A stretch of DNA of 64,000 nt from Candidatus Omnitrophota bacterium (GTDB taxonomy: Bacteria; Omnitrophota; Gorgyraeia; Gygaellales; Profunditerraquicolaceae): positions 25,083 through 89,082 of the forward strand of contig JAKLGJ010000003.1 in NCBI GenBank assembly GCA_022710715.1, in the 5' to 3' direction. The notes under the pieces are model-generated. The model searched no databases, was not told the origin of the DNA, and saw only the letters and a list, made by a program, of their open reading frames with translations. How positions within the stretch are numbered: position 1 is the first letter of the stretch; each line of letters opens with the position of its first letter. The position numbers were made by a program, and so were the translations under genes. Shown one piece after another: positions 9,485 to 34,370 of this stretch.

Positions 9485-9622
9485 TGGAGTTAAAGTATTC
9501 TTATCGAAAAGGGCTCCGGGGGGATTACTGGGGGCCAAAGCCACGGATCGGTAAGCATTATTCTTTTATGCGTTTCGATAACCGGGTTGCCGAAATAAGA
9601 ATCAGCGGCGACGCGGTTTTTT
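9485..9622 (+). promoter_or_regulatory. conserved structured 5' leader with intrinsic terminator (possible divergent c-di-GMP-I/GEMM-like riboswitch)
   Basis: Contains CAAAGCCACGGAUCGGUAAG and UUUCGAUAACCGGGUUGCC...GGCGACGCGGUUUUUU. Both blocks are shared with the two minus-strand leaders at 31.7 and 34.2 kb. It ends 40 nt before the ATG at 9664. Confidence 0.45.
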
Positions 9623-9663
9623 CATTTCTTACACAACAGCTCATCTACCTGGGGGGGGGAACG

Positions 9664-12600
9664 ATGCTGACACGCTGCCTGAAATTTCTTTCTGCTTTCC
9701 TTATTATCTTCAATCTGGCAATTCCGGCAAGTTACGCTGATTTCGCGGTAGCGCCGTATAAACGCTATCCGCTGGCTTCAGGCCGCTCCGCTGCGCCGGC
9801 AACTCCAACTACTCAACAACCGGCCAACGCTGTGACACCTGCGGTAACTCCCGCTGCGACCCCGGCGCAATCAACGCCGGCAGCGCGGACAAGTACGCCT
9901 TTTGTGCGCTCAACCCCCTTGCAGACGAAACAGCCCGCGACTACGACCGCTCCGGCGGCTTCAAAATCGTCCACTTCACCGGCGCCGGTTGTAACTCCCG
10001 CGACGCCCCCGGCGCAGTCAACGCCGGCAGTGCGAAGAACCACTCCATTCGTGCGCTCCACTCCCTTGCAGACTAAACAACCCGCGACCACGGCCGCTCC
10101 GACTACTCAACAACCGTCCAGCACTCCTGCGCCTGCGGCAACTTCGGCACAGACAACTCCGGTAGCACGGACAAGCACGCCTTTTGTGCGCTCGACTCCC
10201 TTGCAGACGAAACAGCCCGCTACCACGGCCGCTCCGGCAGCCCAACAGCCAGCGGTGACTCCGGCGCAGACAGTTCCGGCGGTTACTCCCGCAGCAGCGC
10301 CAGCCACACCGGCTGTCGCGGCTAATCCGGTATCCCTGATCCCCGCTTATCAAAACCCGACTCCGGCATTCGGAACCAGACATACAACTGCTGCAACTAC
10401 AGCTACCAGCCTGGCGCAGATGAGCCCGGAGCAACAGGCCAGTCATATCAACTCTTTATCCGGATATGACGCCGCCCAGATGCTTGCCCGGCTCGACCAG
10501 AACCAGCTCAAACAGGTCATGGCCCAGCCCGGACTGAAGACCGACCTGCTTTCTAAAGTCAGCCCGTTCATTACCCCTGCTTCTTTTGCCGGGCTCACTC
10601 AATCCATGAACGCCGAGCAGATTTCCGCAGCCCTTTCCGCTGCGCCGCTGAACGCGGAAACTTACGCAAAAATACTGGAAAACTGCCCCCAGGCCGCGAC
10701 TGGAATGAAAACATTGATCAAGTCAGACCCGAATAAAGCTTTAAGCGCCATTACGGGGATGAGCGTAAACAAACAGGGCGAAGTATTCAGCCAGCTCGAC
10801 AGCAAAGATATCGCCGCACTGTTCAATGCCCGGACTTCCGACGGCTCGGACCCCAGGGACAACTCCGATCTTTTCGCCCGGCTTTCCCCGGACCAGCAAA
10901 ACAGCGTGTTGAAGGAATTGAGCGCGGTTAACCCGGCGCTGGCCCAGAAATACCTGTACGCGACCACCCAGTCCCTTACCAGAGGCACCAGCGAAGACGC
11001 AAAAGCCAAGCTTTCCGGCGACAGCGCATCTTCCGTTGACCATCCCGGATTGCTGGTAAACGATATGAACCCGGATCAACTTAAAGCGCTTCTGGGCGTG
11101 TGTCAGCCCGGAACTCTCGGCGCGATCCTGGCGGACAGCAAACTGAATACGGCGACCCGCAAACGCATCCTGGATATCATGAAAACCAGCTTCGAGAAAG
11201 CCGGGAATATCGAACAGACCGTGCTCTCTGCCAATGCCAACAAAGTTCCGCAGGACCCGCAACAGTACCTTTTCGATCTGGCCTGGACAACCTACTCCAC
11301 GCTCGATCCGGAAGGCGCTAAGGAAGATTTGAACTCGATCCAGTCCGCGGTAACCGGCTACAACCAGCGCCGCCAGGAATCGGTATTGAAACAGATCGCC
11401 GGAATGGATACCTCACGGGCAGGCGAGCTTCTGGCGCAAACCGACATTTCGGTAGCCCAGACCGCGCAGTTGATCATGTCCGCCTCCGGAGAGCAGAAAG
11501 CGAAGCTGCTGTCCGCGCTGGAACAATCCGATCCGGAGAAGGCAAAAGAAACCAAAACCATGATCAGCCGGATCGAGGAAAACAACCGCAAAGCCGCGCA
11601 GATAGAGAAAAACAACGAACAGGTGCGCAGCACCCTGAAGAAAGTCGGGCCGTCACCGGTAGCCGACTATTTCATCCGGAAAGGCAGTTCCGAACAGACT
11701 ATCGGGGAGCTGGCCCTGATGGACCAGAAATTCATCGACCAGACCCTGTCTTTGATCGAAAAGAAATCGCCCAAGACTGCCGCGCAGGTGCGCAAAGACC
11801 TGGCCGCATACCGGCAAAAAGCTTCTGCTTCGACCACCGTAGATCAACACCTGGACAATCTGGTGAAAGGCTCGGCGCAGGATGCGGCGCTTTTCATTGC
11901 CGCGCAGACTCCGGCAAACGCTAAGAATATTCTTTCGGAACTGGCCAAACGCAACGCATCGTTTGCGGAAGCAACCCTGGCGCAGCTCAAGAAGGTTGAC
12001 TACCAGCTTGCCGACGAAACCCAGAAAAAAGACACCCGCCGCCTGACCAAGAACGAACTGGGGCAACCCATCATTATCGACGGAGAGAACGTCTATCAAG
12101 TGGAAGAGCTTTCCGACGGCACCATCCTCACCCACAGGAGCACCGGAACGGTCAACAACACGAATCTCGGTAAGATCAACGATTCTCCGCAGAATACCGA
12201 GCTGGCCGCGGGCGTTAAGCCAGTCGATATCGACCTGCAGAAGCCCAGGATATACCTTACCGGACAAACCGCCACCGATAACAGCGTAACGATCACCCCG
12301 GGTTCCGGCAGCTCTACTCCCAAGGACGCCTGGTACGATCCGGTGAACAAGCGCTACGGCGACAGCACCAGCATCGGCAGCACGCCCAAGCCGGAATGGA
12401 ATATCAAACGGGAAATAACCTATGACGGGATCGGCAAGCTGACCTTCAAAGGTCAGCTTGACCCGCAAACAGGCGCGCCCCTCGACGGAACAGAGATGAC
12501 CGACGAGAAAGGGCACATCTTCACCGCGGTCACCAAAACCAGCCCGACTTCAGACAAACAGGTCGCCATCCCCGTGCAGACAACCTACCATGCCGGGGAC

Positions 12601-13023
12601 AATCTAACTCTGACTGACGGAACCGAATTGACTTTCAAGAGAGATACCCGGGTGAACCCGGGAATCGGAGAACTGCCGGCAGGCACGGAATTAACCGACA
12701 AAAAAGGCCGGCTGTTCGCTGTGGCGCCGGTCACCAATCCGGCCACAGGCAACCAGGTCTTCACCTACCAGCAGATAAGCTATAACGCCGGAGACACCGT
12801 TGAACTGAAAGACGGGACCACATTGACCTTCAAACAGGACACGATAGCCGACCCGAACACCCTGAAGTTCAAAACCAATGCAATACTCACGGATAAGGAC
12901 GGAAACTACTGGGAAGCCTTCGGAACTGTGACCAGCTTGCAATTCAAACAAATCAATCCAGCGACAGTTGAAAAAGACTGGAAGGTGTTCGACCCGGCAA
13001 CCGGACGTTTAGCCGGTAAATAA
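9664..13023 (+). CDS. giant secreted repeat protein (Pro/Thr/Ala-rich tandem repeats, helical middle, C-terminal beta repeats)
   Basis: The start is moved to ATG 9664 (MLTRCLKFLSAFLIIFNLAIPASYA signal peptide, G-rich SD). The track's longer N-terminus translates the upstream leader RNA. The protein has 3.5 tandem repeats of about 45 aa (STPFVRSTPLQTKQPATTAAP). At the C-terminus LTLTDGTELTFKRDT and VELKDGTTLTFKQDT are duplicated. Confidence 0.6.
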   Translation: MLTRCLKFLSAFLIIFNLAIPASYADFAVAPYKRYPLASGRSAAPATPTTQQPANAVTPAVTPAATPAQSTPAARTSTPFVRSTPLQTKQPATTTAPAASKSSTSPAPVVTPATPPAQSTPAVRRTTPFVRSTPLQTKQPATTAAPTTQQPSSTPAPAATSAQTTPVARTSTPFVRSTPLQTKQPATTAAPAAQQPAVTPAQTVPAVTPAAAPATPAVAANPVSLIPAYQNPTPAFGTRHTTAATTATSLAQMSPEQQASHINSLSGYDAAQMLARLDQNQLKQVMAQPGLKTDLLSKVSPFITPASFAGLTQSMNAEQISAALSAAPLNAETYAKILENCPQAATGMKTLIKSDPNKALSAITGMSVNKQGEVFSQLDSKDIAALFNARTSDGSDPRDNSDLFARLSPDQQNSVLKELSAVNPALAQKYLYATTQSLTRGTSEDAKAKLSGDSASSVDHPGLLVNDMNPDQLKALLGVCQPGTLGAILADSKLNTATRKRILDIMKTSFEKAGNIEQTVLSANANKVPQDPQQYLFDLAWTTYSTLDPEGAKEDLNSIQSAVTGYNQRRQESVLKQIAGMDTSRAGELLAQTDISVAQTAQLIMSASGEQKAKLLSALEQSDPEKAKETKTMISRIEENNRKAAQIEKNNEQVRSTLKKVGPSPVADYFIRKGSSEQTIGELALMDQKFIDQTLSLIEKKSPKTAAQVRKDLAAYRQKASASTTVDQHLDNLVKGSAQDAALFIAAQTPANAKNILSELAKRNASFAEATLAQLKKVDYQLADETQKKDTRRLTKNELGQPIIIDGENVYQVEELSDGTILTHRSTGTVNNTNLGKINDSPQNTELAAGVKPVDIDLQKPRIYLTGQTATDNSVTITPGSGSSTPKDAWYDPVNKRYGDSTSIGSTPKPEWNIKREITYDGIGKLTFKGQLDPQTGAPLDGTEMTDEKGHIFTAVTKTSPTSDKQVAIPVQTTYHAGDNLTLTDGTELTFKRDTRVNPGIGELPAGTELTDKKGRLFAVAPVTNPATGNQVFTYQQISYNAGDTVELKDGTTLTFKQDTIADPNTLKFKTNAILTDKDGNYWEAFGTVTSLQFKQINPATVEKDWKVFDPATGRLAGK
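9840..10270. repeat. imperfect tandem DNA repeats (about 135-147 bp period) inside the giant secreted protein gene
   Basis: cttgcagac(g/t)aaaca(g/a)cccgc recurs at 9918, 10065 and 10200. Confidence 0.7.
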
Positions 13024-14004
13024 TTCCACTTTATTGCGCCCGGATTTTTTGGCCTGATACAACGCTTTGTCCGCGTTATCCAGCAATCCCGCCAGCTCTT
13101 TACCCTGCTGCGGGAACAATGAGATCCCGACACTCACCGTGACGTCTATCCGCTCGTCATATGCCACTACCGGTTTGCTCTGTATGCCCGCGCGGATACG
13201 CTCCGCCACGAACAACGCCCCCTCTTTATTGGTTTCGGTCAAGAGAATGGCGAACTCCTCCCCCCCGTATTTACCGATAAGATCGACCTGACGGATGTGC
13301 GCTTTGATCCGCTGCGCGACTTCCTTGAGTATCGCGTCCCCTACCAGATGGCCGTAATGATCGTTGATATCCTTGAAATGGTCGACATCAAGCATCAAAC
13401 AGGCGCAGGCATAATTAAAAGCCCTGGAACGGGATAATTCCTCCGACGAACGCCCCCACCAGTACCTGCGCGCCGATACCTGGGTCAGTCCGTCGATAGT
13501 GGCCATCTCCTGCACTTTCTGATACAGAATGGCGCGTTTCATTCCCAGCAGGAATTGCTGGGAAAGAATGGTGAATTTATCCCGGTCTTCCCGGCGTACC
13601 GGCGCGACGACCAGATAATTCATCAGCTGGTCTTCCAGCCGCAGAGGCACTATCGCGTATTCCTTGAACGCCGCCAGATCGGCGTCCGCGGGAACGAACC
13701 GGCAGTCTTCGACAGCCAGCATTTTGTGCAGCTTCTCCTTAAAAACCGAAAACACCTTATCCTGATCGAGATGGCTGCACAATTCCCGGGTGATATCGTA
13801 TAAGGTCATGGTCTGCTCCAGCCGGTTGCGTAAATCCATGTTCTGCCCGGTAAGCTGATCGTATTCCTGCAGCAGCCGCTGATAATCAGCCTGACGCAGC
13901 TTCCCTTCGCGCTGCGCCGACAGCACGCGCCTGGCGAAAAACCGCTCCAGCCTGAAATAGAGAAGCATGGTGAGCAAAACAAGGATCGCAATCTGGATAA
14001 ACAT
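13009..14004 (-). CDS. membrane-anchored diguanylate cyclase (GGDEF domain)
   Basis: N-terminal TM helix. C-terminal motifs are RYGGEEFAILL (GGEEF active site) and DVDHFKDINDHYGH. Confidence 0.8.
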   Translation of the reverse strand: MFIQIAILVLLTMLLYFRLERFFARRVLSAQREGKLRQADYQRLLQEYDQLTGQNMDLRNRLEQTMTLYDITRELCSHLDQDKVFSVFKEKLHKMLAVEDCRFVPADADLAAFKEYAIVPLRLEDQLMNYLVVAPVRREDRDKFTILSQQFLLGMKRAILYQKVQEMATIDGLTQVSARRYWWGRSSEELSRSRAFNYACACLMLDVDHFKDINDHYGHLVGDAILKEVAQRIKAHIRQVDLIGKYGGEEFAILLTETNKEGALFVAERIRAGIQSKPVVAYDERIDVTVSVGISLFPQQGKELAGLLDNADKALYQAKKSGRNKVELFTG

Positions 14005-14005
14005 G

Positions 14006-15178
14006 CTAAGCTCCGATCACCAAATTCCTGCCCTTACTTTTGGCTTCATACAGGGCGCGGTCCGCTTTCATAAGCAACTCGATCTCTTCCTGCGCGTCAT
14101 GGGGAAATTCCGCTACACCCACGGAGATAGTGCACTGATTACGCTGCCTGCGCAATAAGAGCTCCCTGGCGGCAACCGCTTTGCGCAGGTTTTCCGCGAT
14201 CTTCAACCCGGTATTCTTATCGGTATCCGGCAGCAATACGCAAAACTCTTCTCCGCCGAACCGGCAGACTACGGCGGGTATCTGCGCGAGAGCCTCGCTC
14301 ACCGCTTTACTGATGGTTACCAGCACGATATCCCCCGCGGCGTGACCGAACGTATCGTTGAGTTTCTTGAAATTATCGATATCCAGCATCAGCAGGCAGA
14401 GCGAGCGCGGATGCCGGTACGTTCTTCGGCATTCGGTCTTAAGCATCTCCAGAAAATACCCTTTATTGAACAACCCGGTCAATCCGTCATGAATGGCCAT
14501 GGTCCGCGCGTCCTTGTACAGCTGCGCATTCTCCAGAGAAACCGCTCCCAGCTCCGCGATGGTCATGAAGAAACGCAGATCGTCCTGGGCGAAGAAACGC
14601 TTGTGCTGATGCTCAAGACGGATCAAACCAATGACCTTTCCCCCGCTGATCAGCGGCACTTCGATCAACGAAGCGATCGGGCGCGGGTCGGCGCGGCGCA
14701 CTTTATCAGCGTCGAAGCGGAAATCCTTGGAGATATCCTCGACCAGCAGCGGACTGGCGTGGCGCAGCACCCAGTGATCGAAACTGTCCCCCTCCTTGGC
14801 TTTGATCACGATCGCGCGTTCGTCTTTAAGTGTCTTGAAGAGGACTAACTTCTGGGTTGAACCGTCGAGCAGATATAACAGGCACTCTCCCTGATTATCG
14901 GCCAGCAGGAAGAACGAAATTGCGCAGAGCTGCTCGGCAACCGCATCCAGGGAAAGCTCCTGGTTCAGCAGTTCGATGATACGTTTAAGATTTTCGTAGC
15001 GTTCGATGCGCCGCTGCAGGAACTGGGTGTTCGCGCGCTCCTGCTGATTGGATGCCGACTGAACATTGATGTTCTCCTGAACGCCGTCACCGTCGAGTTT
15101 GAGCTTATAGAGTTGCCGGGAATTTCGCTGGGCGAGCCAGATGACCGCGGGGAGATTGCCCAGATAAAAAACCGCCAA
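14006..15178 (-). CDS. GAF-domain diguanylate cyclase (GGDEF)
   Basis: TM N-terminus, central GAF-like region, then RFGGEEFCVLL and DIDNFKKLNDTFGH. Confidence 0.8.
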   Translation of the reverse strand: MAVFYLGNLPAVIWLAQRNSRQLYKLKLDGDGVQENINVQSASNQQERANTQFLQRRIERYENLKRIIELLNQELSLDAVAEQLCAISFFLLADNQGECLLYLLDGSTQKLVLFKTLKDERAIVIKAKEGDSFDHWVLRHASPLLVEDISKDFRFDADKVRRADPRPIASLIEVPLISGGKVIGLIRLEHQHKRFFAQDDLRFFMTIAELGAVSLENAQLYKDARTMAIHDGLTGLFNKGYFLEMLKTECRRTYRHPRSLCLLMLDIDNFKKLNDTFGHAAGDIVLVTISKAVSEALAQIPAVVCRFGGEEFCVLLPDTDKNTGLKIAENLRKAVAARELLLRRQRNQCTISVGVAEFPHDAQEEIELLMKADRALYEAKSKGRNLVIGA

Positions 15179-15294
15179 AATGCCGGGGCGGAAAAAACCG
15201 AATCGAGCGGCAACGACAGGCGCGACGATAAAGAGGATACTAAAGAAAAGCAGGAATGCGACTGTGTGGAGGGATTTTTTATTGATCTTTACAC

Positions 15295-16398: not shown

Positions 16399-16448
16399 GA
16401 TCTCCTCGCTTCACAATGCACCAGTACCCGGAGAAAAAATCAATACCG

Positions 16449-17288: not shown

Positions 17289-17307
17289 ACGTTCGTCTCC
17301 TTACCGT

Positions 17308-19248: not shown

Positions 19249-19275
19249 TGGTTTATCGGGGACGCGCCCCTCTCC

Positions 19276-20442
19276 TTATCTGAATGTTTTCTTGATCTTC
19301 TCGCCGAAACTTTCCCTGGATGCATCTTCTCCGGATAGACGCGCGAAATCTTCGATCAACTTACGCTGTTCGGCAGTCAGCCGGGTAGGAATATCCACTT
19401 CCACCTGAACCAACTCGTCGCCTACCCCGTGGCCGTGCACATCCGGAACGCCTTTTTCCTTGAGCCGGAAAATCTTGCCGCTCTGCGTTCCCGGCGGGAT
19501 CTTCATCGATACTTTCCCCTCCAGAGTGGGCACATCCACGTCAGCCCCCAGGATCGCTTTAGTCACGCTGATCGAAATACGGGTGATCAGGTCGTTGCCG
19601 CGACGCACAAAAACCGAATGCGGCTTAACCTCGATGATCACGTACAGGTCGCCCCGTCCGGCAGTCCCGGCTTCTCCTTCGCCGCGCACGCGCAGATTCG
19701 AACCGTTATCCACTCCCGGCGGCACCTTGACCCGGATAGTGCTGGTTTTACGCTGCCTGCCTTCGCCGCCGCAAGCAGGACACGGTGTCTGGATAAACTC
19801 GCCCTGCCCCCGGCATTTCGGACAGGTCTGCGCCAGCTGAAAGAATCCGCTGGATACGACTACCCGGCCGGACCCTTTACACTGGGTGCAGGTGATCTTT
19901 TTGGAACCGGGTTTAGCGCCGCTGCCGCCGCAGGTCTCGCACATCTCGTACCGCGGCACCGTGATCGATTTCTCCACTCCCCCGGCCGCCTCTTCCAGGG
20001 TGATCGAAACGGTTATCTCCAGATCGCGGCCGCGCCGCGCCCGCGGGTTTTGCCTGCCGCCCGACCGGCTGCTCCCGCCGCCGCCGAAAATATCGAACCC
20101 GAGATCCCCGAAAATATCCTCAAAGATACTCCCGCTGAAACCTCCGCCGCCGCCGAAAACGCTGGAGAAATCCGCGCCTTTGAAAATATCTTCATAGGCG
20201 TATTTCTGGTCGATACCGGAATGACCGTATTGATCGTAGAGCTGGCGCTTCTGGGTATCGGAAAGAACCGCGTACGCTTCCGAGATCTCCTTAAATTTCT
20301 CTTCCGCTTCTTTTTTCTGCGCCGGTTCAACCCGATCCGGATGGAATTTCATCGCCAGCTGACGATAAGCCTTTTTGATCTCATCGACGCTGGCGGACTT
20401 GGCGACGCCCAGCACTTCGTAGTAATCTTTCTTCGTAGACAT
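19276..20442 (-). CDS. dnaJ: molecular chaperone DnaJ
   Basis: J domain KDYYEVLGV...HPDR. G/F-rich linker. Four CxxCxGxG zinc repeats. Start set at MSTKK; the alternative upstream ATG at 20520 has an AAGGA SD. Confidence 0.85.
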   Translation of the reverse strand: MSTKKDYYEVLGVAKSASVDEIKKAYRQLAMKFHPDRVEPAQKKEAEEKFKEISEAYAVLSDTQKRQLYDQYGHSGIDQKYAYEDIFKGADFSSVFGGGGGFSGSIFEDIFGDLGFDIFGGGGSSRSGGRQNPRARRGRDLEITVSITLEEAAGGVEKSITVPRYEMCETCGGSGAKPGSKKITCTQCKGSGRVVVSSGFFQLAQTCPKCRGQGEFIQTPCPACGGEGRQRKTSTIRVKVPPGVDNGSNLRVRGEGEAGTAGRGDLYVIIEVKPHSVFVRRGNDLITRISISVTKAILGADVDVPTLEGKVSMKIPPGTQSGKIFRLKEKGVPDVHGHGVGDELVQVEVDIPTRLTAEQRKLIEDFARLSGEDASRESFGEKIKKTFR

Positions 20443-20574
20443 ATTCTTCACAAGATCAGCTAACAGGCTTTCCGGGGACAGGTTATTACTCGCCCGTTGT
20501 AGACGCGCGGGCGGCGTCATAATCCTTATGTCCCCTGCAAGCCTGTTAGCTGCTCTCCTTAACCTTTATTTGAT

Positions 20575-26504: not shown

Positions 26505-26525
26505 ACCTGGCGTCCCTCCGCAATC

Positions 26526-26552: not shown

Positions 26553-26569
26553 CAACAAACCAAAAAAAT

Positions 26570-26839: not shown

Positions 26840-26867
26840 CTTTCCCCTCTTCTCTTATCACACTAAA

Positions 26868-26896
26868 AGATTATCATGATCTAACTAAATTGTCAA
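26868..26896 (-). promoter_or_regulatory. candidate promoter of hspR with overlapping imperfect palindrome
   Basis: The minus strand reads TTGACA, a 15-17 nt spacer, then GATAAT/TAATCT. AGATTATCATGATCT overlaps the -10 element. A second AGATTATCTAACT copy lies at 26917-26929. Confidence 0.35.
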
Positions 26897-26933
26897 GCAT
26901 TATTTGATAATTTTTATTAGATTATCTAACTGA

Positions 26934-28196: not shown

Positions 28197-28283
28197 GAAG
28201 ATATTATAGCACAAAAAAGTCCCGGGGGGCAGCGAACTGCTCTCCGGGACTTTGAGCAAATGTTTGCGTCGTTAACCGGGCTG

Positions 28284-29537
28284 CTAATTGCCGTTCTGCG
28301 GCCAGACCACAGGTTCCCATTTATTTTCGTTGGTCAGGCCGAGTAGAACATTATTTATCACCTTGTACTGATTGCGGAACTCTTCCCGCATTCCGCCGGG
28401 ACGATACTCCACCGTGTCATCGGCGCTCTTGAACACATCGAAGTATCCGTTGTCGTCGAGATCTATGGCGCCGACGCCGCCATACAGATGATAACCCGCA
28501 TTCCAGTTTATCGCATCCGCCGCGGGCTTGCTCACGGCTGCCGGAACTTCGATGACTGCCTCGCCTGCGTCCGACACAGCATACTCCCCTGCGGTGCGGG
28601 GATTGAAGTTCTCGTTGGGCAGATCGTAGTACGTCCCGGAACCGTCAGGATCCACGGCGATCACCGAGCCCGTGGCGATCATATAATCGTGCGAATTAAG
28701 GACTGCGTTCATATCGCCGTATTTTATCTGCGCCGCCGGATACTGCTTGCCGATGGTATCGAGTATTGCCTTAGCGTCGTCCGGCTGCATCGAATTCAGG
28801 ATATCGTAGGCCTGATCGAGCTGCATGTCTTTCGGATTAGCCAGGATCTGAATTGCCAGGTCCATTCCTCCGCTTGTCGCCTGGCTTTTGTAAATCCCGG
28901 TCATTACCGTCCCCGCCTGTGCGGGGTCCATCGTACCCAGAACCCGGGCGACCTGGCCCACGTCCACTTTGGCCATCGCGCCCATCACCTGCGTCACTTG
29001 AGCGGTATCCATCTGATTGAATATCTGCGCTTTTTCGCCGGCATTAAGATAGGTGCTGCCCATCACCGAGGACAGCTTACCCGTATCCATCTGATTGCCC
29101 ACTATTGCCGCCGCCACCGCAGGCATATTCTTTATGGTATAAGCGGCGCGGTCGGTAGGCAGCGCATTGAATGCGCCCGCAACCAGCGCGGACTTGTTAT
29201 CGGCAACCAGCTGCGTGCTCACCAGGGCATTGACTTTGGTGTCGAGGGTAACCATCAGCCTGGCGGTATCGCCCGCAGTAGTAAAAGCGCTGGCTTTCTG
29301 ATAGGCGTTGCCTGCAGCCAGCTGTTGGCCCGAGCTTAAGGAAGCAGGCGAGGCAAACGTCTTGCTGCCGGTAGACACCTGCTGCTTGCCGCCGCTATCG
29401 ACAGCCTGGCCGGTTTCGGAGCGGGTCCAGACCCCGTTATTCCAGTAATTATAGGCCCAGGCATTCCCGCCTGCGCTTGCCGCTGCCAGGCCGCAGAGCA
29501 CCGCGCAGAGCAATACTACCGAACTGTACTTTTTCAT
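28284..29537 (-). CDS. secreted hypothetical protein
   Basis: Signal peptide MKKYSSVVLLCAVLCGLAAASA. Lies 57 bp downstream of the 29595 gene, so probably co-transcribed. Confidence 0.5.
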   Translation of the reverse strand: MKKYSSVVLLCAVLCGLAAASAGGNAWAYNYWNNGVWTRSETGQAVDSGGKQQVSTGSKTFASPASLSSGQQLAAGNAYQKASAFTTAGDTARLMVTLDTKVNALVSTQLVADNKSALVAGAFNALPTDRAAYTIKNMPAVAAAIVGNQMDTGKLSSVMGSTYLNAGEKAQIFNQMDTAQVTQVMGAMAKVDVGQVARVLGTMDPAQAGTVMTGIYKSQATSGGMDLAIQILANPKDMQLDQAYDILNSMQPDDAKAILDTIGKQYPAAQIKYGDMNAVLNSHDYMIATGSVIAVDPDGSGTYYDLPNENFNPRTAGEYAVSDAGEAVIEVPAAVSKPAADAINWNAGYHLYGGVGAIDLDDNGYFDVFKSADDTVEYRPGGMREEFRNQYKVINNVLLGLTNENKWEPVVWPQNGN

Positions 29538-29594
29538 AACTTCTCCTCTATCGCTGATATACCTGTCGAACTCCTAACCTTAAAGCCGGTAGTA

Positions 29595-31547
29595 TCAACT
29601 CGCTGGATTCAAATCTTTAATATTCACCCTGTAGGGTTCAGCCGGATGATACTGATTCGGCGTCCCGTCTTGATTGTGGATCGAGTAAAACGCATCCTGC
29701 GCCACTTTATTCCATCCGATCAGGGAAGCTTCCCAATTCAACGCGGCATTCCCCATCCCGACACCGACAACCTGCCCCTCGTCATTGACAAACTCCACAT
29801 CGTTGATACCTATAAGACAGGTTGTGTTGATCTGATCCATCGGGAAACCGATCGCGCCTTCTGCCTTATTGAGATCATGTATCCATTGATAGGGATTCGA
29901 CCATTGGCCGAACGGACTGATCGCAGAATTGGTGCCGCAGAGAATGCTGGCGGCGCGGATTTCCGCAGGCGTTTGGCTCAAGGAAGTACCGGTCAGCAAG
30001 GTATTATACCCATTACCCGAGGCAATCTCGAAGTTGCCGTTAAGCAAAGCGACGGGATCAATCCCCCGCATCGCGACATCGCCGGGAGAATCCACATACG
30101 TGACCGGGGTTATATTCCCGGAGGCCATCTCATTTTCGGATAGGTTCTTGGCCGCTACCTGAAACTGCGTACCTGCAGACACATCCTGAATAAGAACAGT
30201 TCCGGTGCCCGGAGTGGTGTAATCCAGCCGCAGGTTGCCTTGCGCATCGGCCGTTGTCGTTCCCATCACCTGTGGCCCAGTACCCTTGCCGTTATCAAAA
30301 CTGACCACAACCTGTCCGCCGGGGGTCAATCCCGCGGCCACGACATTGTAGTTATCCAACCCCGCGCTCAAACAAAGGATATTCGCATTATCTGCCGATT
30401 GGGAAACGCCATTGAGACCTGGCGCCGCCGCCAGGGCATTACCTCCCTGCAAAGTCTGGCTATTGGCTCCCGGAACAACCGTTATCTGTTGCGGCGTGCC
30501 GGTATTGGGATCCTGGCCTGCATATACGGGCGCGAGTTCAGTCATACCTCCCGCTGTGGCAGTCGTGCCGAAAGTCGGGGCGGAAAGAGTGAGCCCGGCA
30601 TTGGCAAAATCCGCCTGGCCGATGCTAAATCCCGGATTCCCGTTATTCGCGCCCGCGGTGACCCCGACCACCTGCCCGTTCTCGAAACTAACGGTTAAAG
30701 GAGCGCCGACAGTGATCCCCAGGCCGTTCTGTCCGGTAGTGGTCTCATTATTGTACATTGACTGGCCCAGTCCTCCGGGAAGCATTGCCTGTACCCCATC
30801 CCCGTAGGAGAATGTTCCGCCGCCGGTATAGCTGGGCGTCGACAGTTGCGCGGAAACCTGGCCGGGAGCGGTCTGTGTGATGGTAGCGAAGGTATTACCG
30901 GTAGTCGGATTGGATAAAGTGATCGAGGTGATATCCCCGTTAGCGGCATAATTGAAATTGCCCGACGAACCCGTGGGCGCGTTCAAATTGCCCATCGTGG
31001 CGGAAATGTTCATGCTGAATGTCGTGCCGCCAGGAGCAGTGGCCGTAGGAGCAGAGGTAAAGCTATTATTCCCGGTGAGCGTGGCTGAAAAAGAACCTGC
31101 GCTGGCTGGGGTGAAACCGAGCAATGAGGAAACGTTGCCCAGCGTACCGGATGACGGCATGGTCAACGAAGAAGAAAATGATCCTGGATTACTGCTGATT
31201 CCGGGCGAATTCATGGAAGAGCTGGAGAAGCTGGGCACGCTCATTCCGGACATCGTTGAAGAAAGGGTAGGATTATTCGCGGCAAAGGAAATTCGCGCGT
31301 CAGCCGCGTGCTGCGAAGCCGAAGGACCGGTCCCCAATCCGGGACTGCCGGAAAAAGAAGCGCTGCTTCCCGGGCTGCTGAAGCTTGGAGATGAACCGCC
31401 GGACATCAGATTACCGCTGGTATCATGCGTCCCGTTGGAAGCAAAAGGACAGGGATCCGAAGCATCCCATACAGCGGCATGAACAGGAACCGCAAACACA
31501 CAAAACAAAACACTTGCTACCAACAACAAACACGCTTTGTTTCTCAT
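29595..31547 (-). CDS. secreted Ser/Gly/Thr-rich large surface protein (adhesin-like)
   Basis: Start at MRNKACLLLVASVLFCVFAVPVHA (signal peptide). Very long low-complexity S/G/T/N tracts. Confidence 0.55.
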   Translation of the reverse strand: MRNKACLLLVASVLFCVFAVPVHAAVWDASDPCPFASNGTHDTSGNLMSGGSSPSFSSPGSSASFSGSPGLGTGPSASQHAADARISFAANNPTLSSTMSGMSVPSFSSSSMNSPGISSNPGSFSSSLTMPSSGTLGNVSSLLGFTPASAGSFSATLTGNNSFTSAPTATAPGGTTFSMNISATMGNLNAPTGSSGNFNYAANGDITSITLSNPTTGNTFATITQTAPGQVSAQLSTPSYTGGGTFSYGDGVQAMLPGGLGQSMYNNETTTGQNGLGITVGAPLTVSFENGQVVGVTAGANNGNPGFSIGQADFANAGLTLSAPTFGTTATAGGMTELAPVYAGQDPNTGTPQQITVVPGANSQTLQGGNALAAAPGLNGVSQSADNANILCLSAGLDNYNVVAAGLTPGGQVVVSFDNGKGTGPQVMGTTTADAQGNLRLDYTTPGTGTVLIQDVSAGTQFQVAAKNLSENEMASGNITPVTYVDSPGDVAMRGIDPVALLNGNFEIASGNGYNTLLTGTSLSQTPAEIRAASILCGTNSAISPFGQWSNPYQWIHDLNKAEGAIGFPMDQINTTCLIGINDVEFVNDEGQVVGVGMGNAALNWEASLIGWNKVAQDAFYSIHNQDGTPNQYHPAEPYRVNIKDLNPAS

Positions 31548-31654
31548 ACAGCCTCCTCGTGGTTTAATCGTTATTCGCATTAGACCTCGAGTAAGGACGG
31601 CCGTTCCCCATCAAACTAAATAAGCCTGATCCCCCCCACAAACGTCTTACTCCC

Positions 31655-31862
31655 CCTTAAAACAAAACAACCGAGTTGCACTATCCAGGCAACCCGGCTA
31701 TCGAATATAATTTATTTCAGGGTTTTTAAAAGACCTTAAAATGAACTCTAACTAATTTCTCCCGTATTTCCCCTGAAACAAACTGCGTGTTACTTTCGAC
31801 CCGTGGCTTTCCGTCCCCGCCTTACGACGGGTTTGGCTTTGTCGTCACAAGTATGCCATATC
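31655..31862 (-). promoter_or_regulatory. c-di-GMP-I (GEMM)-like riboswitch candidate with terminator expression platform
   Basis: The minus-strand RNA reads GACGACAAAGCCAAACCCGUCGUAAGGCGGGGACGGAAAGCCACGGGUCGAAAG. It aligns position by position with the Vc2 GEMM aptamer: GGGCAAACC / hairpin with GNRA loop / GGGACGCAAAGCCUCCGG. It is followed by a 9-bp terminator stem CCGGGUUGC / GCAACUCGG and UUGUUUUGUUUU at 31659-31697. Confidence 0.55.
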
Positions 31863-31950
31863 AACTTCAGAAATTCAAGTCTTTGTTCCCGACTTTTGCT
31901 TCCGTTTACGCTACCAAGATCAAAATCAGGCTCGAACACGCTTATCAATG

Positions 31951-31983
31951 GTCCTGGAGGACAGTTACCTGTCCTCCAGGACC
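31951..31983. promoter_or_regulatory. perfect 14-bp-arm palindrome downstream of the 32064 gene
   Basis: GTCCTGGAGGACAG TTAC CTGTCCTCCAGGAC. No U tract follows. Confidence 0.4.
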
Positions 31984-32063
31984 TTGACCGAACATTCTCT
32001 CGAACGTGCCTGATTGTCTGTTTGCTGCTTTACTTCTCCCCCTCCCTTGTTGTGGTGGTGCGG

Positions 32064-34052
32064 TTAATTCAAAGGTGAAATGCCGATCGTGCTGTACTGG
32101 CCGCCGTAATAGCCGGCCTCAATGATATTATTGTGGTCTCTGACCCGGTCATTCACCACGCCCGAGCCCGAACCCGGTATCATCATACCCATCTCGTCGT
32201 AATGCGCAGTATTGATGGTGAAGAACGGATCCATTACGATATAGTCCTGCAGCTTAGCCGCATCCATCATGCTCCCGGGAAGCGCATTAAAGGAAGCCTG
32301 CATATCCACTTTATCTTCCATAGACAGGCCAAATCCCTTTAAAGCCTCGGTGCTGACATAACCGCAGAACACCTCATCCCAGCGATTATCCACGTAGGTC
32401 AAACCGCCGCTGGGGGTGGTGAACAAGGATCCCTGGCCGATGACCTGCGACCAATTGTTGATCGATACCGGGCCGTAGAGCAAGTTGCTCATATGCTCCT
32501 GGGCCGAGCCGGAAAGATTGGTCACCACCTGCGAGGTAACCTGACCCTGCCCGTACGTTTCCAGAGTAGAGTCGGCAGGAGACACGCCTTTGATATCGTA
32601 GGTCTTGCCGTCGGCAGTCTTCAGATTGTCCACAAAATTCTCGGCAGTGCTGACTTCGTCGATGGAGCGAAAAGCGACCACGCGCTGATTGCCGGCCATA
32701 TCCTCAACCACAGCCCAGACATTATTGCCATAATGCTTGGTCTCGCCCTGATTATTGGGCTGATCTTTCCAGATTCCCGGCAAGGCGCTGATCACCACGC
32801 CATCGGCGGTGGCAAACCACTTCTCCGGGGAAGAGCCGAATATCTGCGCGCCGTCCTCATCATGGAAAGAAAGCACCTTGCTGACTCCGGACAGATACAG
32901 CGTGCCCTGATTGTCGACAATGGTCAAAGGCGCCAATCCCTGCGGCGCTGCCGAAGTCTGCGCGACTGGCTGTTCCTGATCAGAAGCCAGAAGCTGACCT
33001 TGAGCCTGTTCCTGGCCTGAAACTGCCTCTTTGCTGCCAGCCATCGGATCAATGCCTGTTGCCGCCAGGGAACCGGCGATCGGCGTTGCCGCCTGCAACA
33101 GCGCGCTGTCTTCGCCGAAATTCCTGCCGTCAACTACCATCTGGACCAGCTTGCCGTCCTTATAATTCATGGTGAGATCCGAACCGTCTTTAATACCCAG
33201 GGCAGTGGCCACTTCCGACTTATCACCGATGCCTGAAAAGATCATGTATTCGTTATCGTTCATCTTCATCCTGCCGCCTTCGGTAGCTTCGGCTTTCCAG
33301 GTGGAAACCACGCTACCTGACTGGTCGCGGCCGATCGCGCCAACAGACTTGAGATCGCTATTGACAAATGAGATCTCCACGAAGTTATTCCCGCCCACGC
33401 TTGCGCCTTCGGCAGCGCTCATCTGAACGAACACCTTGGTCCCTTCAGTCACTTTTGCCGGGAACGCTCCGTCGAGATTGAAGGTGGCGCTCTGGTTGTT
33501 GAAATCGAAAGTTATCTGATTGGCGCCGTTCCAGACGCCGGTGGCGCCCAGAATGCCGGTGTTGCTGTTATAGAACAACCCCTGGCCGTTGGTAATCGTA
33601 TCGGGACGGGAAGTAGAAATGGAAAAAGTGGGATTATTGAAGAAGCTTCCCACCGCGTTGGAAGAGCTAAGAGCTATGGATTGGGTGCCGAAAGAAGAAC
33701 TGGTGATGGGATTAGTGGTTACGGAAGGAGTCGTACCCCATTGAGCCCAGATGTTGTGATCCGGACCGCCGTAACTCCACATGCCCGTACCGCTGACCAC
33801 CGGACTGGCGCTGATAGCTGCCGCAGGAGTTGACCAGCTGCCGCCTCCTCCGCCGCCGTCAATACTCACTCCGCCGCCGCCAAAAACGCTGCCGCCCATG
33901 GTTTCCGACATACCTGAAGGTGCCAGATCTGCCTGATACGAACCCGGCGCGGACTCCGTAACCCAGCTCGCGCAGACCGGCATACACAGCGGAACAGTCA
34001 AAAGAACAACTGCGAAAAACATACTTCCTGAAGCCAAGGAATGAAATCTCAT
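32064..34052 (-). CDS. large secreted hypothetical protein
   Basis: Signal peptide MRFHSLASGSMFFAVVLLTVPLCMPVCASW. Gly-rich N-terminus. Preceded by the second riboswitch-like leader. Confidence 0.55.
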   Translation of the reverse strand: MRFHSLASGSMFFAVVLLTVPLCMPVCASWVTESAPGSYQADLAPSGMSETMGGSVFGGGGVSIDGGGGGGSWSTPAAAISASPVVSGTGMWSYGGPDHNIWAQWGTTPSVTTNPITSSSFGTQSIALSSSNAVGSFFNNPTFSISTSRPDTITNGQGLFYNSNTGILGATGVWNGANQITFDFNNQSATFNLDGAFPAKVTEGTKVFVQMSAAEGASVGGNNFVEISFVNSDLKSVGAIGRDQSGSVVSTWKAEATEGGRMKMNDNEYMIFSGIGDKSEVATALGIKDGSDLTMNYKDGKLVQMVVDGRNFGEDSALLQAATPIAGSLAATGIDPMAGSKEAVSGQEQAQGQLLASDQEQPVAQTSAAPQGLAPLTIVDNQGTLYLSGVSKVLSFHDEDGAQIFGSSPEKWFATADGVVISALPGIWKDQPNNQGETKHYGNNVWAVVEDMAGNQRVVAFRSIDEVSTAENFVDNLKTADGKTYDIKGVSPADSTLETYGQGQVTSQVVTNLSGSAQEHMSNLLYGPVSINNWSQVIGQGSLFTTPSGGLTYVDNRWDEVFCGYVSTEALKGFGLSMEDKVDMQASFNALPGSMMDAAKLQDYIVMDPFFTINTAHYDEMGMMIPGSGSGVVNDRVRDHNNIIEAGYYGGQYSTIGISPLN

Positions 34053-34117
34053 CTTCCCCCTCCCCGTATTTAAGGGCCCCCCACTTATCCCTTGCGCTCC
34101 GGATTGAGCGACTTAGT

Positions 34118-34370
34118 AGACAACAAAAAAACCGAGTTGCGCTTGTTCGGCAACCCGGCTATCGAATAGATTGTTTGAGGGTTTTAAAAAGAGTTTAAGA
34201 TCAACTCAAAAAAAATTTCTGTTCCCCATTCCCCCAAAACAAATTGTCAGTTACTTTCGACCCGTGGCTTTCCTTCGGCGTGTTCATGCTGCGTTTCAAC
34301 CGAACTCCCGTCTGGGAGGTCCCCGCCTTACGACGAGTTTGGCTTTGTCGTTCAAAGTATGCCATACTTA
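34118..34370 (-). promoter_or_regulatory. second copy of the GEMM-like leader (with ~45-nt hairpin insertion) plus conserved terminator
   Basis: Matches copy 1 (...UAUGGCAUACUU..GACGACAAAGCCAAAC.CGUCGUAAGGCGGGGAC..GGAAAGCCACGGGUCGAAAGUAAC...) except for an inserted CUCCCAGACGGGAGUUCGG...CCGAA block. The terminator CCGGGUUGC / GCAACUCGG followed by UUUUUUUG is at 34121-34158. Confidence 0.45.

Follow-up and report, generated by a model that had tools for sequence, protein, structure and literature searches.

Organization of the Locus

The DNA analyzed here belongs to an uncultured Candidatus Omnitrophota bacterium that is known from anaerobic-digester metagenomes. The locus is present on five public contigs, all of which are approximately 100% identical to each other, and the source contig measures at least 1.6 Mb (a JGI contig of 1.62 Mb; NCBI MAGs also carry the locus). 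Within the window, by which we mean the whole 64-kb stretch that was analyzed, lie three leaders (L1, L2 and L3), the secreted "cargo" proteins encoded downstream of them, a pair of GGDEF genes, and a set of pilin-like genes preceded by a possible fourth leader (L4). Scores labeled R2 come from a covariance model made from 15 sequences, all of them from other organisms and none from the window. The features are as follows:

236..4279, minus strand: pilin-like operon of five genes, two with an N-terminal methylation motif and one DUF4900
4529..4738, minus strand: L4, a candidate degenerate GEMM-I-like element upstream of the pilin operon (R2 15.1 bits)
9452..9480, plus strand: L1 promoter-like site, TTGAAT-17 nt-TACACT, 8/12 to consensus, read from the sequence
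9497..9604, plus strand: L1 aptamer, divergent L1-type GEMM-I (RF03167 31.3 bits, R2 74.9 bits)
9580..9623, plus strand: L1 intrinsic terminator, hairpin of -19.5 kcal/mol (z -3.98), then U6
9664..13023, plus strand: gene 1, a 1119-aa secreted protein under L1 with signal peptide, repeats and an MgtE_N-like helical region
13009..14004, minus strand: diguanylate cyclase 1, 331 aa, with N-terminal TM helix, coiled region and GGDEF domain
14006..15178, minus strand: diguanylate cyclase 2, 390 aa, GAF plus GGDEF, start codon uncertain
28284..29537, minus strand: gene 4, a 417-aa secreted protein 57 nt downstream of gene 2, with an MgtE_N-like region (30.7 bits, weak)
29595..31547, minus strand: gene 2, a 650-aa secreted orphan under L2, starting MRNK...
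31659..31702, minus strand: L2 intrinsic terminator, hairpin of -20.6 kcal/mol (z -4.73)
31684..31846, minus strand: L2 aptamer, canonical c-di-GMP-I core with an 89-nt P3 extension (Rfam 61 bits, R2 31.4 bits)
31850..31878, minus strand: L2 promoter-like site, TTGAAT-17-CATACT, read from the sequence and aligned with the L3 promoter
32064..34052, minus strand: gene 3, a 662-aa secreted orphan under L3 with a Gly-rich stretch
34121..34160, minus strand: L3 intrinsic terminator, hairpin of -17.4 kcal/mol (z -2.87) overlapping the aptamer 3' strand, then U7
34145..34352, minus strand: L3 aptamer, a paralogue of L2 that shares its P3 extension (Rfam 31 bits, R2 31.2 bits)
34356..34384, minus strand: L3 promoter-like site, TTGAAA-17-CATACT with TG

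Two adjacent GGDEF genes, one membrane-anchored and one GAF-linked, had been described in the original prediction, and the profile scores bear this out. Cyclase 1 scores 155.7 bits against PF00990 and 183.7 bits against TIGR00254 (cut-offs 23.8 and 37.4, respectively) and carries a GGEEF active site with an RxxD I-site five residues upstream; cyclase 2 scores 150.1 and 173.3 bits against the same models and has GGEEF without RxxD. DxDxFK and KxxGRN motifs could likewise be read in the cyclases, and both proteins look catalytically competent by their sequence. The genes lie on the same strand, 1 nt apart, and probably form one operon. Neither Pfam scans, which took in practically every long ORF, nor a six-frame motif search turned up EAL, HD-GYP or PilZ anywhere in the whole window, in keeping with the earlier statement that EAL and HD-GYP genes are missing; this absence of a phosphodiesterase covers only 25-64 kb of a contig of at least 1.6 Mb.

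Sec-type signal peptides start genes 1, 2 and 3 by inspection. Gene 1 contains three 49-aa Pro/Thr-rich tandem repeats (147-bp period) and three C-terminal beta-type repeats, along with a weak MgtE_N match of 29.2 bits. Translation of gene 1 most likely begins with the ATG at 9664. The start stated before, 9485, is the TTG of a mechanically called ORF that extends across the leader, and public annotation shortens the gene product to 867 aa. Gene 2, which is preceded by a GAGGAGG ribosome-binding site 4 nt upstream and is Ser/Gly/Thr-rich in its N-terminal third, has been shortened in public gene calls to 472 aa and accompanied by a spurious antisense ORF. Gene 3 similarly has a Ser/Gly/Thr-rich low-complexity N-terminal part, and its AF2 model (pLDDT 37) is uninformative. 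Gene 4 is probably co-transcribed with gene 2 and so also under L2. Its product is weakly similar to the cargo of L134 and L144.

An exhaustive search of 1.84 billion (1.84e9) representative proteins returned no relative of gene 3 at E<=1e-3, while word-indexed searches recovered only gene 1 itself and no homologues of genes 2 and 4; a PDB sequence search with gene 1 gave no match, and Pfam and NCBIfam yielded nothing on the four cargo proteins beyond the weak MgtE_N regions in genes 1 and 4. The expectation of large secreted proteins, repeat-rich or of low complexity, is confirmed by the signal peptides, repeats and low-complexity regions. Their reading as adhesins or matrix proteins is not supported, as no adhesin, S-layer or matrix family was matched (Pfam and NCBIfam; PDB for gene 1), and "adhesin" is unproven because the cargo proteins are without detected homologues.

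The type IV pilin operon that had been noted nearby was recovered in part. There is indeed a pilin-like operon, in which two ORFs match PF07963 (34 bits; MNRKG followed by FTLVEIMIVVAIIALLAAIAIP; N-terminus MNRKGFTLVEIMIV) and a prepilin cleavage/methylation motif is followed by a hydrophobic helix; these features may denote type IV pilins or type II secretion pseudopilins. Upstream, L4 scores 15.1 bits with R2 (E 0.057 over 64 kb) and 24 bits with Rfam (E 0.0027 over 661 nt), with a fold z of -5.99. A promoter (4749-4777) and a strong terminator (4529-4569) belong to L4, and the pilin operon seems to have a promoter of its own downstream of that terminator.

Classification of the Leaders

That the window holds three GEMM-like leaders is upheld by Rfam and by the independent model R2, both of which match all three. 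Between 8000 and 36000, Rfam gives three matches to clan CL00126 and no other credible match. L2 (31684-31846, minus strand; 61 bits, E 6e-12) exceeds the gathering score of 59 and is also matched by a second clan model above that model's own gathering score; L1 (RF03167, 9503-9595, plus strand; 31.3 bits, E 9e-4) and L3 (34145-34352, minus strand; 31.0 bits, E 1e-3) fall under the gathering score of every Rfam model. Scanning the whole window with R2 gave 74.9 bits for L1 (E 4e-20), 31.4 bits for L2 (E 6e-7) and 31.2 bits for L3 (E 7e-7). Each leader reads ...AAAG, P2, AAAGCC...UGCC, with G before P2 and UGCC after P3, and the ligand-contact nucleotides G20, A47 and C92 (Vc2 numbering) are present in all three. 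The role of A47 in ligand contact is known from Vc2 structures. The corresponding roles of G20 and C92 have also been described for Vc2 (PMC11705072).

The three-helix architecture (P1/P2/P3) is present in the Rfam and R2 alignments of all three leaders, and the minimum free energy (MFE) structure of the aptamer alone gives the GEMM-I fold for L1 and L2. In an alignment of 32 sequences (A3), which had been fitted to the model, 86.5% of cells form pairs, compared with 67.5% in shuffles, none of which (0/500) reaches 86.5%; slid controls give 26-45%. Double-sided changes occur in 22 of 29 pairs, with covariation seen in P1, P2 and distal P3. Both the P3 base and the pocket were set by the search patterns, so that conservation there among the retrieved relatives is by construction. 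By sequence and structure, L1, L2 and L3 are GEMM-I aptamers of the c-di-GMP-I clan. They are not equivalent, however: L2 combines the canonical form with a long P3 extension, L3 is its paralogue and carries an insert, and L1 belongs to a divergent subgroup.

L2 and L3 share GAC with C44, the A82-G83 bulge and a GUAA loop, and both lack the 11-nt receptor. In L2, the tetraloop caps P2 and an AAA/GAC loop is present (fold z -3.1), with P1 amounting to 1-2 bp only as aligned. The two leaders are identical at 68 of 69 core positions, at 67% of the P3 extension and at 25% of the terminator loop, a distribution that argues for continued selection on the core. Because all five public contigs that carry the locus are nearly identical, they offer no orthologous comparison for L2 or L3.

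L1 folds, as the aptamer alone, into P1, P2 and P3 in its MFE structure (z -2.75; 0/200 shuffles), with a 10-bp P1, a plain P2 hairpin, and a P3 containing A and AA bulges and a 13-nt loop. The P2 internal loop, bulged C44, G83 (A instead), GNRA tetraloop and receptor are all absent from L1. At least 16 sequences are of this type, comprising L1, the two taxonomically labeled members (L014 and L115, both Omnitrophota) and others on metagenome contigs. P2 is a stable hairpin in all 16 sequences, although the outer six bases of its 5' strand take 15 forms among them (three mis-delimited by script). P1 is 10-11 bp long throughout the subgroup, G20, A47 and C92 occur in all members at pocket positions fixed by the search pattern, and the overlapping terminator described below is kept by every one. 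Among the relatives, L147 precedes a PilZ gene (PF07238, 27.9 bits), others precede small pilin-like proteins with a G-x4-EY motif or, resembling genes 1 and 4, large proteins that combine a signal peptide with low-complexity and MgtE_N-like parts, and a GGDEF gene lies just upstream of one. These associations fit c-di-GMP-controlled surface functions. We tentatively put forward, as a possibility and short of an expectation, that the L1 type is a structurally distinct and previously undescribed c-di-GMP-I subgroup that has dispensed with the C44-G83 and tetraloop contacts and lengthened P1, possibly with retuned affinity, kinetics or ligand preference.

Expression Platforms and Proposed Mechanism

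Downstream of each aptamer lies an intrinsic terminator (-17 to -21 kcal/mol plus a U-tract) whose 5' arm is the 3' strand of the aptamer, such that aptamer and terminator pairings are mutually exclusive in L1, L2 and L3. In L1, this arm comprises the P3 3' strand, C92 and inner P1; in L2, the terminator overlaps the aptamer 3' strand (AGCCGGGUUGCC) and is followed by UUGUUUUGUUUU. Many relatives share the overlapping layout. All three leaders lie 5' of same-strand ORFs with ribosome-binding sites and signal peptides, and promoter-like sites lie upstream. The L1 site scores under the promoter-scanner threshold, and L1 relatives have a similar TAtACT box just 5' of P1. Since the terminator 5' arm is the aptamer 3' strand, ligand-dependent antitermination, that is, an ON switch, is predicted. 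The pilM ON switch of Geobacter follows the same design, with a terminator that sequesters the ligand-pairing C (PMC9262584). The expression platforms of L1-L3 make sense as c-di-GMP-induced ON switches.

In the mechanism that we propose, each leader would be transcribed from its own sigma-70-like promoter, and the nascent RNA would fold into the three-helix aptamer with a pocket containing G20, A47 and C92. Bound c-di-GMP would lock the P3 3' strand, C92 and P1 into the aptamer, while in its absence the aptamer 3' strand would pair downstream to form the intrinsic terminator and halt transcription before the gene. High c-di-GMP would accordingly turn on four secreted, fast-evolving proteins: gene 1 through L1, genes 2 and 4 through L2, and gene 3 through L3. 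The two adjacent cyclases, one membrane-anchored with an I-site and the other GAF-sensing, would be plausible contributors to the c-di-GMP pool. We consider it likely that, taken as a whole, L1-L3 are transcriptional c-di-GMP-I ON riboswitches that gate secreted proteins, with the cyclases as plausible contributors to the pool. Ligand binding, the ON polarity as it would apply in vivo, surface or adhesive roles of the proteins, and coupling to the neighboring cyclases or pilins are each steps that we infer.

Alternative Explanations

The ligand itself is the first matter in dispute. In Rfam, the top-scoring family for all three leaders is RF03167 (c-di-GMP-I-GGC), whose gathering score L2 surpasses, and this would suggest variants that sense another ligand, or c-di-GMP with altered specificity. 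The name GGC is read as positions 20, 47 and 92, and the only pocket position that separates the two families follows P2, where the RF01051 consensus is GACGC-AAA-gCc and that of RF03167 is GACGC-GAA-gCc. L1, L2, L3 and L4 all carry A there, and GGC identity was rejected on that nucleotide. The label instead arises because related models compete for the match. RF03167 is the best-scoring model for 13 of 19 GEMM matches at 18 loci in other genomes (up to 75.9 bits), of which the pattern-retrieved ones carry A by construction; the RF03167 alignments of L007 and L046 show A where the model has G, and aptamers elsewhere with the canonical A often score best with RF03167 when P3 is short or the receptor module is absent. 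Together with the above-threshold match of L2 to a second clan model, this renders the variant reading highly improbable. The refuting outcome that the original prediction had named, a cmsearch assignment to another riboswitch class, seems at first to be at hand in the GGC match, but it falls away once the diagnostic nucleotide is read. The label therefore does not by itself identify the variant nucleotide, which is a practical caution for annotators. The cGAMP riboswitch GEMM-Ib, which is defined by A at position 20 and prefers cGAMP, was rejected as an identity given G at position 20 in all leaders. That preference is consistent with published work (PMC7266159). A related doubt is whether L1 and its relatives are ordinary c-di-GMP sensors at all, rather than weakly binding high-threshold switches, sensors of a related nucleotide, or ligand-independent attenuators. 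The plain P2 hairpin, A83 and missing tetraloop and receptor favor such a departure, as do the 12 of 15 L1-type relatives below the Rfam gathering score, and a G83C mutant of Vc2, made to break the C44-G83 pair, fails to fold into the ligand-bound state (PMC11705072). Yet the pocket nucleotides are retained in every member, the three helices covary, the terminator overlap is universal, one member controls a PilZ gene and another adjoins a GGDEF gene, and the unusually long P1 recalls the longer closing helix that stabilizes ligand-bound Vc2 (PMC11705072). We regard a non-ordinary L1 type as quite unlikely.

Whether every leader still functions, and whether they form one system, are separate matters. 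L3 and L4 could be decaying duplicates in which inserts or mismatches inactivated the aptamer and left a constitutive promoter-terminator unit. L3 contains a 45-nt insert forming two hairpins between GAC and the P2 closing pairs, has a sub-threshold Rfam score, and as the aptamer alone gives an MFE structure that misses P2 (z +1.0); L4 has mismatches at two basal P3 pairs that do not vary elsewhere, and even with no ligand its MFE structure is the P1-plus-terminator state. However, the L3 core has stayed nearly identical to that of L2 despite 33-75% divergence of the flanking parts, its terminator arm is also conserved, and an unrelated Syntrophobacterales aptamer (L054) bears an inserted hairpin at the same site. 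Decay appears unlikely. The evidence on a dedicated system is more evenly divided. The cyclases and gene 1 converge, and between the cyclases and L2/L3 lie 13 kb of housekeeping genes (AccD, DnaK/J, GrpE, HrcA, ClpB, HflX), with DUF1015 and VanZ in the same interval; the "system" is inferred from proximity only, because the cyclases are co-transcribed with no leader and lie at that distance. Cyclases, pilin operon and riboswitch genes may thus be independent loci within 35 kb of a small genome that uses c-di-GMP globally, and the separate promoter that the pilin operon seems to possess agrees with this, as does the finding that roughly 105 kb around related leaders holds no more than a single GGDEF motif, a single PilZ-like motif and the PilZ gene that follows the L147 leader. 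Conversely, the density of GEMM-type leaders is high, with three and perhaps four of them in 34 kb, and cyclases and leaders by definition have their messenger in common. To independent loci we assign an even chance. Of the earlier view of a c-di-GMP regulon, the c-di-GMP-I-class aptamers and the secreted cargo are supported, and the link to the cyclases is one of proximity.

Significance and Comparison with Known Systems

Riboswitches that turn on surface genes in response to c-di-GMP are textbook biology, and the system as such is not surprising. Omnitrophota, however, are uncultured, and their pili and poorly conserved surface proteins are suspected of serving in attachment to other cells or predation on them; orphan proteins gated by riboswitches, together with pilin-like genes, point to genes deployed in an "attached" state. 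The leaders also provide a signal for metatranscriptome studies, in which read-through can be set against termination as a ratio. The L1 type is a natural experiment that shows to what extent an aptamer can do without the Vc2 tertiary architecture. Should the loss of tertiary contacts retune affinity or kinetics, giving a high-threshold c-di-GMP switch, or alter the ligand preference, the L1 type would constitute a natural minimal GEMM scaffold and a regulatory entry point to attachment in a phylum that is suspected to live on host cells.

Relative to the c-di-GMP-I class (RF01051; Vibrio cholerae Vc2), the leaders have in common the three helices, J1/2 AAAG with G20, A47 after P2 and C92 after P3. 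L2 and L3 further resemble Vc2 in the AAA/GAC internal loop, the GNRA loop on P2 and the A82-G83 bulge, but differ in their 89-nt P3 extension and missing 11-nt tetraloop receptor and, for L3, in two hairpins inside P2. L1 departs further, lacking the P2 internal loop, C44-G83 and the tetraloop, with a 10-bp P1 and, like L3, a score under the gathering threshold. With RF03167, the leaders share, besides its rank as top model, a short receptor-less P3 base and a CCACGG...AGCCGGGyUGCC core, whereas all of them have A after P2 in place of the G that defines the variant.

In Clostridioides difficile, Cd1 is an OFF switch on flagella, and class II ON switches act on type IV pili and adhesins. The likeness lies in one messenger acting through several riboswitches to turn surface and adhesion genes on, and L4, if functional, would oppositely control a pilus/motility locus; the phylum is a different one, however, the cargo here has no recognizable adhesin domains, and all switches are class I. 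The pilM leader of Geobacter metallireducens (GEMM-Ib) is likewise an ON switch with mutually exclusive aptamer and terminator, the latter taking the ligand-pairing C, and it controls pilus and surface genes (PMC9262584); the leaders here differ in having G20, which predicts c-di-GMP. Within the phylum, the main genomic survey of Omnitrophota contains no occurrence of c-di-GMP or riboswitches and proposes poorly conserved large surface ORFs, type IVa pili and Tad pili as host-attachment traits (PMC10066038). Although the proteins described here are of 0.4-1.1 kaa and not giant ORFs, they match that survey in being secreted, poorly conserved, domain-poor and accompanied by pilin genes (PMC10066038).

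Leaders with a canonical c-di-GMP-I pocket

The RNA elements considered here are the following:
9497-9604 (+), leader L1
31684-31846 (-), leader L2
34145-34352 (-), leader L3
4529-4777 (-), L4, a candidate fourth element

The original prediction placed three GEMM-like leaders in this DNA, and they are confirmed at all three sites, both by Rfam and by R2, a covariance model built from 15 related sequences of other organisms and hence independent of Rfam and of the window. L2 is the sole riboswitch at the Rfam gathering threshold (c-di-GMP-I-GGC, 61 bits against a gathering score of 59, E 6e-12), and another model from this clan likewise scores above its own threshold there. An E-value threshold adds two c-di-GMP-I-GGC matches, at 9503-9595(+) (L1, 31.3 bits) and 34145-34352(-) (L3, 31.0 bits), each immediately upstream of one of the remaining two large ORFs. 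A search of the full 64 kb with R2 gives 74.9 bits for L1 (E 4e-20), 31.4 bits for L2 (E 6e-7) and 31.2 bits for L3 (E 7e-7).

Taken at face value, the GGC top match would move the leaders into another riboswitch class; the diagnostic nucleotide places them otherwise. The pocket consensuses of RF01051 (GACGC-AAA-gCc) and RF03167 (GACGC-GAA-gCc) differ at a single position, the nucleotide after helix P2, which corresponds to A47 of Vc2, the Vibrio cholerae model aptamer. Every leader carries AAAGCC, together with a G before P2 (G20 in Vc2 numbering) and UGCC after P3 (C92). The variant-defining position is thus occupied by the canonical A instead of G, a nucleotide on which membership of the GGC variant (RF03167) is rejected, and the G at position 20 is evidence against the cGAMP-sensing GEMM-Ib type. 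The core AAAGCCACGG...ARCCGGGYTGCC, scanned across one genome per species with a pattern that itself fixes the A in every match, is present in more than 120 genomes from many phyla. Eighteen core-bearing loci yielded 19 GEMM matches, with RF03167 as the top model for 13 (up to 75.9 bits) and RF01051 for six, and the RF03167 alignments of two fetched loci (L007 and L046) show A at the model's G position. The GGC label tracks a short, receptor-less P3 and not the variant nucleotide, and is an artefact of competition among related models. Judged from their sequence, the leaders are canonical-pocket c-di-GMP-I aptamers. Among the public loci L006-L125, RF03167 outscores RF01051 on many canonical-A aptamers of Bacillota, Thermodesulfobacteriota, Planctomycetota and other phyla, so that an RF03167 annotation alone is no sign of the variant.

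Architecture and predicted switching of L1, L2 and L3

The 5' half of L2 has the textbook form (ACAAAG-CC-AAA-CCCGUC-GUAA-GGCGGG-GAC-GG-AAAGCCACGG) and is separated by an 89-nt P3 extension from its 3' half (GAU-AG-CCGGGUU-GCC); the aptamer alone folds as P2 plus a long P3 (z -3.1; 0/200 shuffles). L3 is a paralogue of L2 (79% identity overall) with the same P3 extension and a further 45-nt insert of two small hairpins between GAC and the P2 closing pairs, a site at which an unrelated Syntrophobacterales aptamer (L054) also has an inserted hairpin. Segment by segment, L2 and L3 agree at 68/69 positions of the aptamer core, and by 90% in the terminator 3' arm, 67% in the P3 extension, 66% in the promoter spacer and 25% in the terminator loop, the pattern that selection on both aptamers would give. 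The minimum free energy (MFE) fold of L3 itself fails to recover P2 (z +1.0), which makes its functionality less certain than that of L2. The P3 extensions and the P2 insert were also considered as copies of a mobile repeat, a reading rejected as neither the window nor some 140 fetched loci held a further copy. The 661-aa ORF behind L2 belongs, at 100% identity, to a cluster named 'Candidatus Omnitrophota bacterium' by NCBI; its copies are on three JGI contigs, one of 1.62 Mb and two shorter, and on two MAG contigs from NCBI, and the leaders and genes of all five are ~100% identical to those of the window; the window accordingly represents one population, and orthologue comparison gives no signal on L2 and L3.

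A sigma-70-like promoter stands before each aptamer (L1, TTGAAT-17-TACACT; L2, TTGAAT-17-CATACT; L3, TTGAAA-17-CATACT), matches 8-9 of 12 consensus positions and ends 3-16 nt from P1; the same TAtACT box occurs in relatives. Each aptamer is followed by a strong hairpin and U-tract (L1 -19.5, L2 -20.6 and L3 -17.4 kcal/mol; z -2.9 to -4.7). The 5' arm of every terminator hairpin consists of the P3 3' strand, C92 and inner P1, and this shared strand makes aptamer and terminator mutually exclusive. In the full-leader MFE folds the terminator wins and the P3 base is open. The same arrangement is found in the Geobacter pilM ON switch, whose terminator sequesters the ligand-pairing C (PMC9262584). 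Binding of c-di-GMP is predicted to permit read-through here. The original prediction is right on riboswitch class and probable logic. Just 3' of gene 3, at 31990-32023(-), lies a perfect 15-bp hairpin (GGUCCUGGAGGACAG-GUAA-CUGUCCUCCAGGACC) without a U-tract, probably an insulator between the L3 unit and the L2 promoter.

A candidate fourth element

R2 returns a weak fourth match at 4575-4734(-) (E 0.057), for which Rfam gives 24 bits (E 0.0027 over 661 nt). This element, L4, is flanked by an LptD-like gene and the pilin operon and has a near-perfect 5' half (GAUAAAG-GC-AAAA-CCCGA-GUAA-UCGGG-CGAC); two hairpins are inserted at the P2 insert site of L3, followed by GC-AAAGCC, GGAU-AG-CC and GCC. 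Mismatches (A.C and C.A) affect two of the four basal P3 pairs, all of which are invariant in the 32-sequence alignment described below. L4 has a promoter (TTGACA-17-TATGCT) and a very strong terminator (-23.6 kcal/mol), with a further promoter-like site downstream of the latter. Its P1 3' strand could alternatively form 9 bp with the apex of the terminator, an OFF-switch topology; however, the P1-plus-terminator state is the MFE as it stands (-93.2 vs -86.2 kcal/mol). Possible readings of L4 are a decaying copy, an OFF switch and a small RNA that stands alone. A second promoter-like site, identical to that of L4, lies at 4857-4885(-).

A divergent subgroup typified by L1

Two long-range contacts are known in Vc2, a GAAA-tetraloop/receptor and a C44-G83 pair; a G83C mutant made to break the pair did not fold into the ligand-bound state, which a longer closing helix stabilises (PMC11705072). 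L1 retains the pocket and P3 base. Its P2 is a plain hairpin with neither the AAA/GAC internal loop, and hence no bulged C44, nor a GNRA loop; its P3 bulge reads AA where the canonical form has AG (G83 to A), and its P1 is 10 bp long. Genome and metagenome scans, which covered the shorter of the two P3 size classes, returned 15 further distinct sequences with these features. Two (L014 and L115, the latter on the same contig as metagenome locus L136) are in labelled Omnitrophota genomes; the others are on metagenome contigs.

The six outer bases on the 5' strand of P2 occur in 15 versions (three mis-delimited by script) across the 16 L1-type sequences, and despite this variety a stable P2 hairpin is present in all 16. 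A model built from them gives its own members 62-98 bits and canonical aptamers 20-46 bits. In a 32-sequence alignment fitted to a covariance model, 86.5% of cells were paired against 67.5% in shuffles (0/500) and 26-45% in slid controls, with double-sided changes at 22 of 29 pairs. These figures carry two caveats: the search pattern itself specified the P3 base and the pocket, which makes their conservation a given, and the alignment follows the model. RNAalifold on a MAFFT alignment gave P3 alone because P1 and P2 were misaligned, and was replaced by the covariance-model alignment and per-sequence hairpin analysis. The Rfam gathering score is reached by 3 of the 15 relatives. Another locus (L131, 8689-8983(-)) carries a tandem pair of L1-type or GEMM-like aptamers (86 and 53 bits), before a signal-peptide protein of 732 aa whose low-complexity region is rich in Ser.

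The genes next to these relatives bear on both ligand and cargo. At L147 the leader (7539-7658(-)) directly precedes a 102-aa PilZ-domain protein (PF07238, 27.9 bits, above the cut-off), and at L132 it sits just downstream of a GGDEF gene; both associations argue for c-di-GMP as the ligand. The leaders of L134 and L144 precede large signal-peptide proteins (MgtE_N, 34 bits) in which low-complexity sequence, an MgtE_N-like region and beta repeats follow one another as in gene 1, and similarity between gene 1 and the L134 protein is not significant. Those of L014, L127 and L133 precede proteins of 56-72 aa with a G-x4-EY motif; at L014 several small ORFs follow, and one neighbouring ORF has a sub-threshold Flp_Fap match. 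As this match and the motif were the only signs of Flp pilin identity, we keep the term pilin-like. By analogy, the genes behind L1-type relatives lend support to a surface role for the cargo.

Secreted cargo

The proteins encoded downstream of the leaders are listed below.
9664-13023 (+), gene 1, under L1; 1119 aa with three 49-aa Pro/Thr-rich repeats, an MgtE_N-like helical region (29 bits) and three C-terminal beta-type repeats
29595-31547 (-), gene 2, under L2; 650 aa with a Ser/Gly/Thr-rich N-terminal third
32064-34052 (-), gene 3, under L3; 662 aa with a Gly-rich stretch
28284-29537 (-), gene 4, 57 nt downstream of gene 2 and so probably also under L2; 417 aa with an MgtE_N-like region

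All four begin with a Sec-type signal peptide, and the claim that the leader-controlled genes encode large secreted proteins with repeats or low complexity holds. Public gene calls on the five contigs shorten gene 1 to 867 aa and gene 2 to 472 aa (window 9664-10600 and 31014-31547), with loss of their signal peptides and low-complexity regions, and a spurious antisense ORF of 156-158 aa is annotated opposite the Ser/Gly-rich stretch of gene 2. Evidence for the longer forms comes from the signal peptides and from a GAGGAGG ribosome-binding site.

Word-indexed searches for cargo homologues returned the query alone in two cases and nothing in a third; an exhaustive HMMER search of 1.84e9 representatives with gene 3 returned nothing but gene 3, a PDB sequence search with gene 1 gave no match, and paralogy among the four is undetectable. 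The AF2 prediction for gene 3, made without an alignment, is unusable (pLDDT 37). The cargo is secreted and fast-evolving. That it consists of riboswitch-gated adhesins and matrix proteins, as originally proposed, is a guess and stands unproven, since Pfam and an NCBIfam scan of all four proteins gave no adhesin, S-layer or other family match.

Cyclases, pilins and surroundings

Two adjacent GGDEF genes are indeed present:
13009-14004 (-), diguanylate cyclase gene
14006-15178 (-), diguanylate cyclase gene

One product has an N-terminal hydrophobic helix and the other a GAF domain, in keeping with their description as membrane-anchored and GAF-linked. Both have GGEEF, DxDxFK and KxxGRN motifs, and the membrane-anchored enzyme has an additional RxxD I-site at PleD spacing. 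Lying 1 nt apart, the genes probably form one operon. They are convergent with gene 1, whose end they overlap by 15 bp, and 13 kb of housekeeping genes separate them from L2 and L3; nothing specific beyond the common messenger ties them to these leaders. The pilin-like operon nearby is real (236-4279(-)). The predicted lack of EAL and HD-GYP genes, to which PilZ can be added, holds for the 64-kb window by Pfam on nearly every long ORF and by a motif search in six frames, and is uninformative as to phosphodiesterases because the contig is at least 1.6 Mb long. A dedicated cyclase-riboswitch-pilin system is unproven, as are the adhesins; what stands of the original prediction is the observation itself, the riboswitch class and the probable logic.

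Two neighbouring features deserve record. The dnaK-dnaJ intergenic region (20441-20561) holds a long near-perfect inverted repeat, with spurious 'mir-584' matches on both strands, which could be an attenuator or terminator inside the hrcA-grpE-dnaK-dnaJ cluster. A low-GC (0.37-0.49) mobile or defence island at 37330-58310, unrelated to the leaders, encodes a large serine recombinase, a D5/NrS-1-type primase-helicase, two MBL-fold proteins, a TPR protein with the PIN domain of the TPR-GreAB-C-PIN system, a complete type I restriction-modification system (HsdS/M/R), RadC, a metallophosphoesterase and an AbiEii toxin.

Relation to known systems

The lineage was rightly called poorly studied: a survey of the Omnitrophota makes no mention of c-di-GMP (PMC10066038), and our literature search turned up no publication that connects the phylum to riboswitches. 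The predicted control by c-di-GMP riboswitches is regulation of a familiar kind, met here in a phylum that is little studied. The most novel element is the L1-type subgroup, which by its sequence drops both tertiary contacts of Vc2 and falls mostly below Rfam thresholds.
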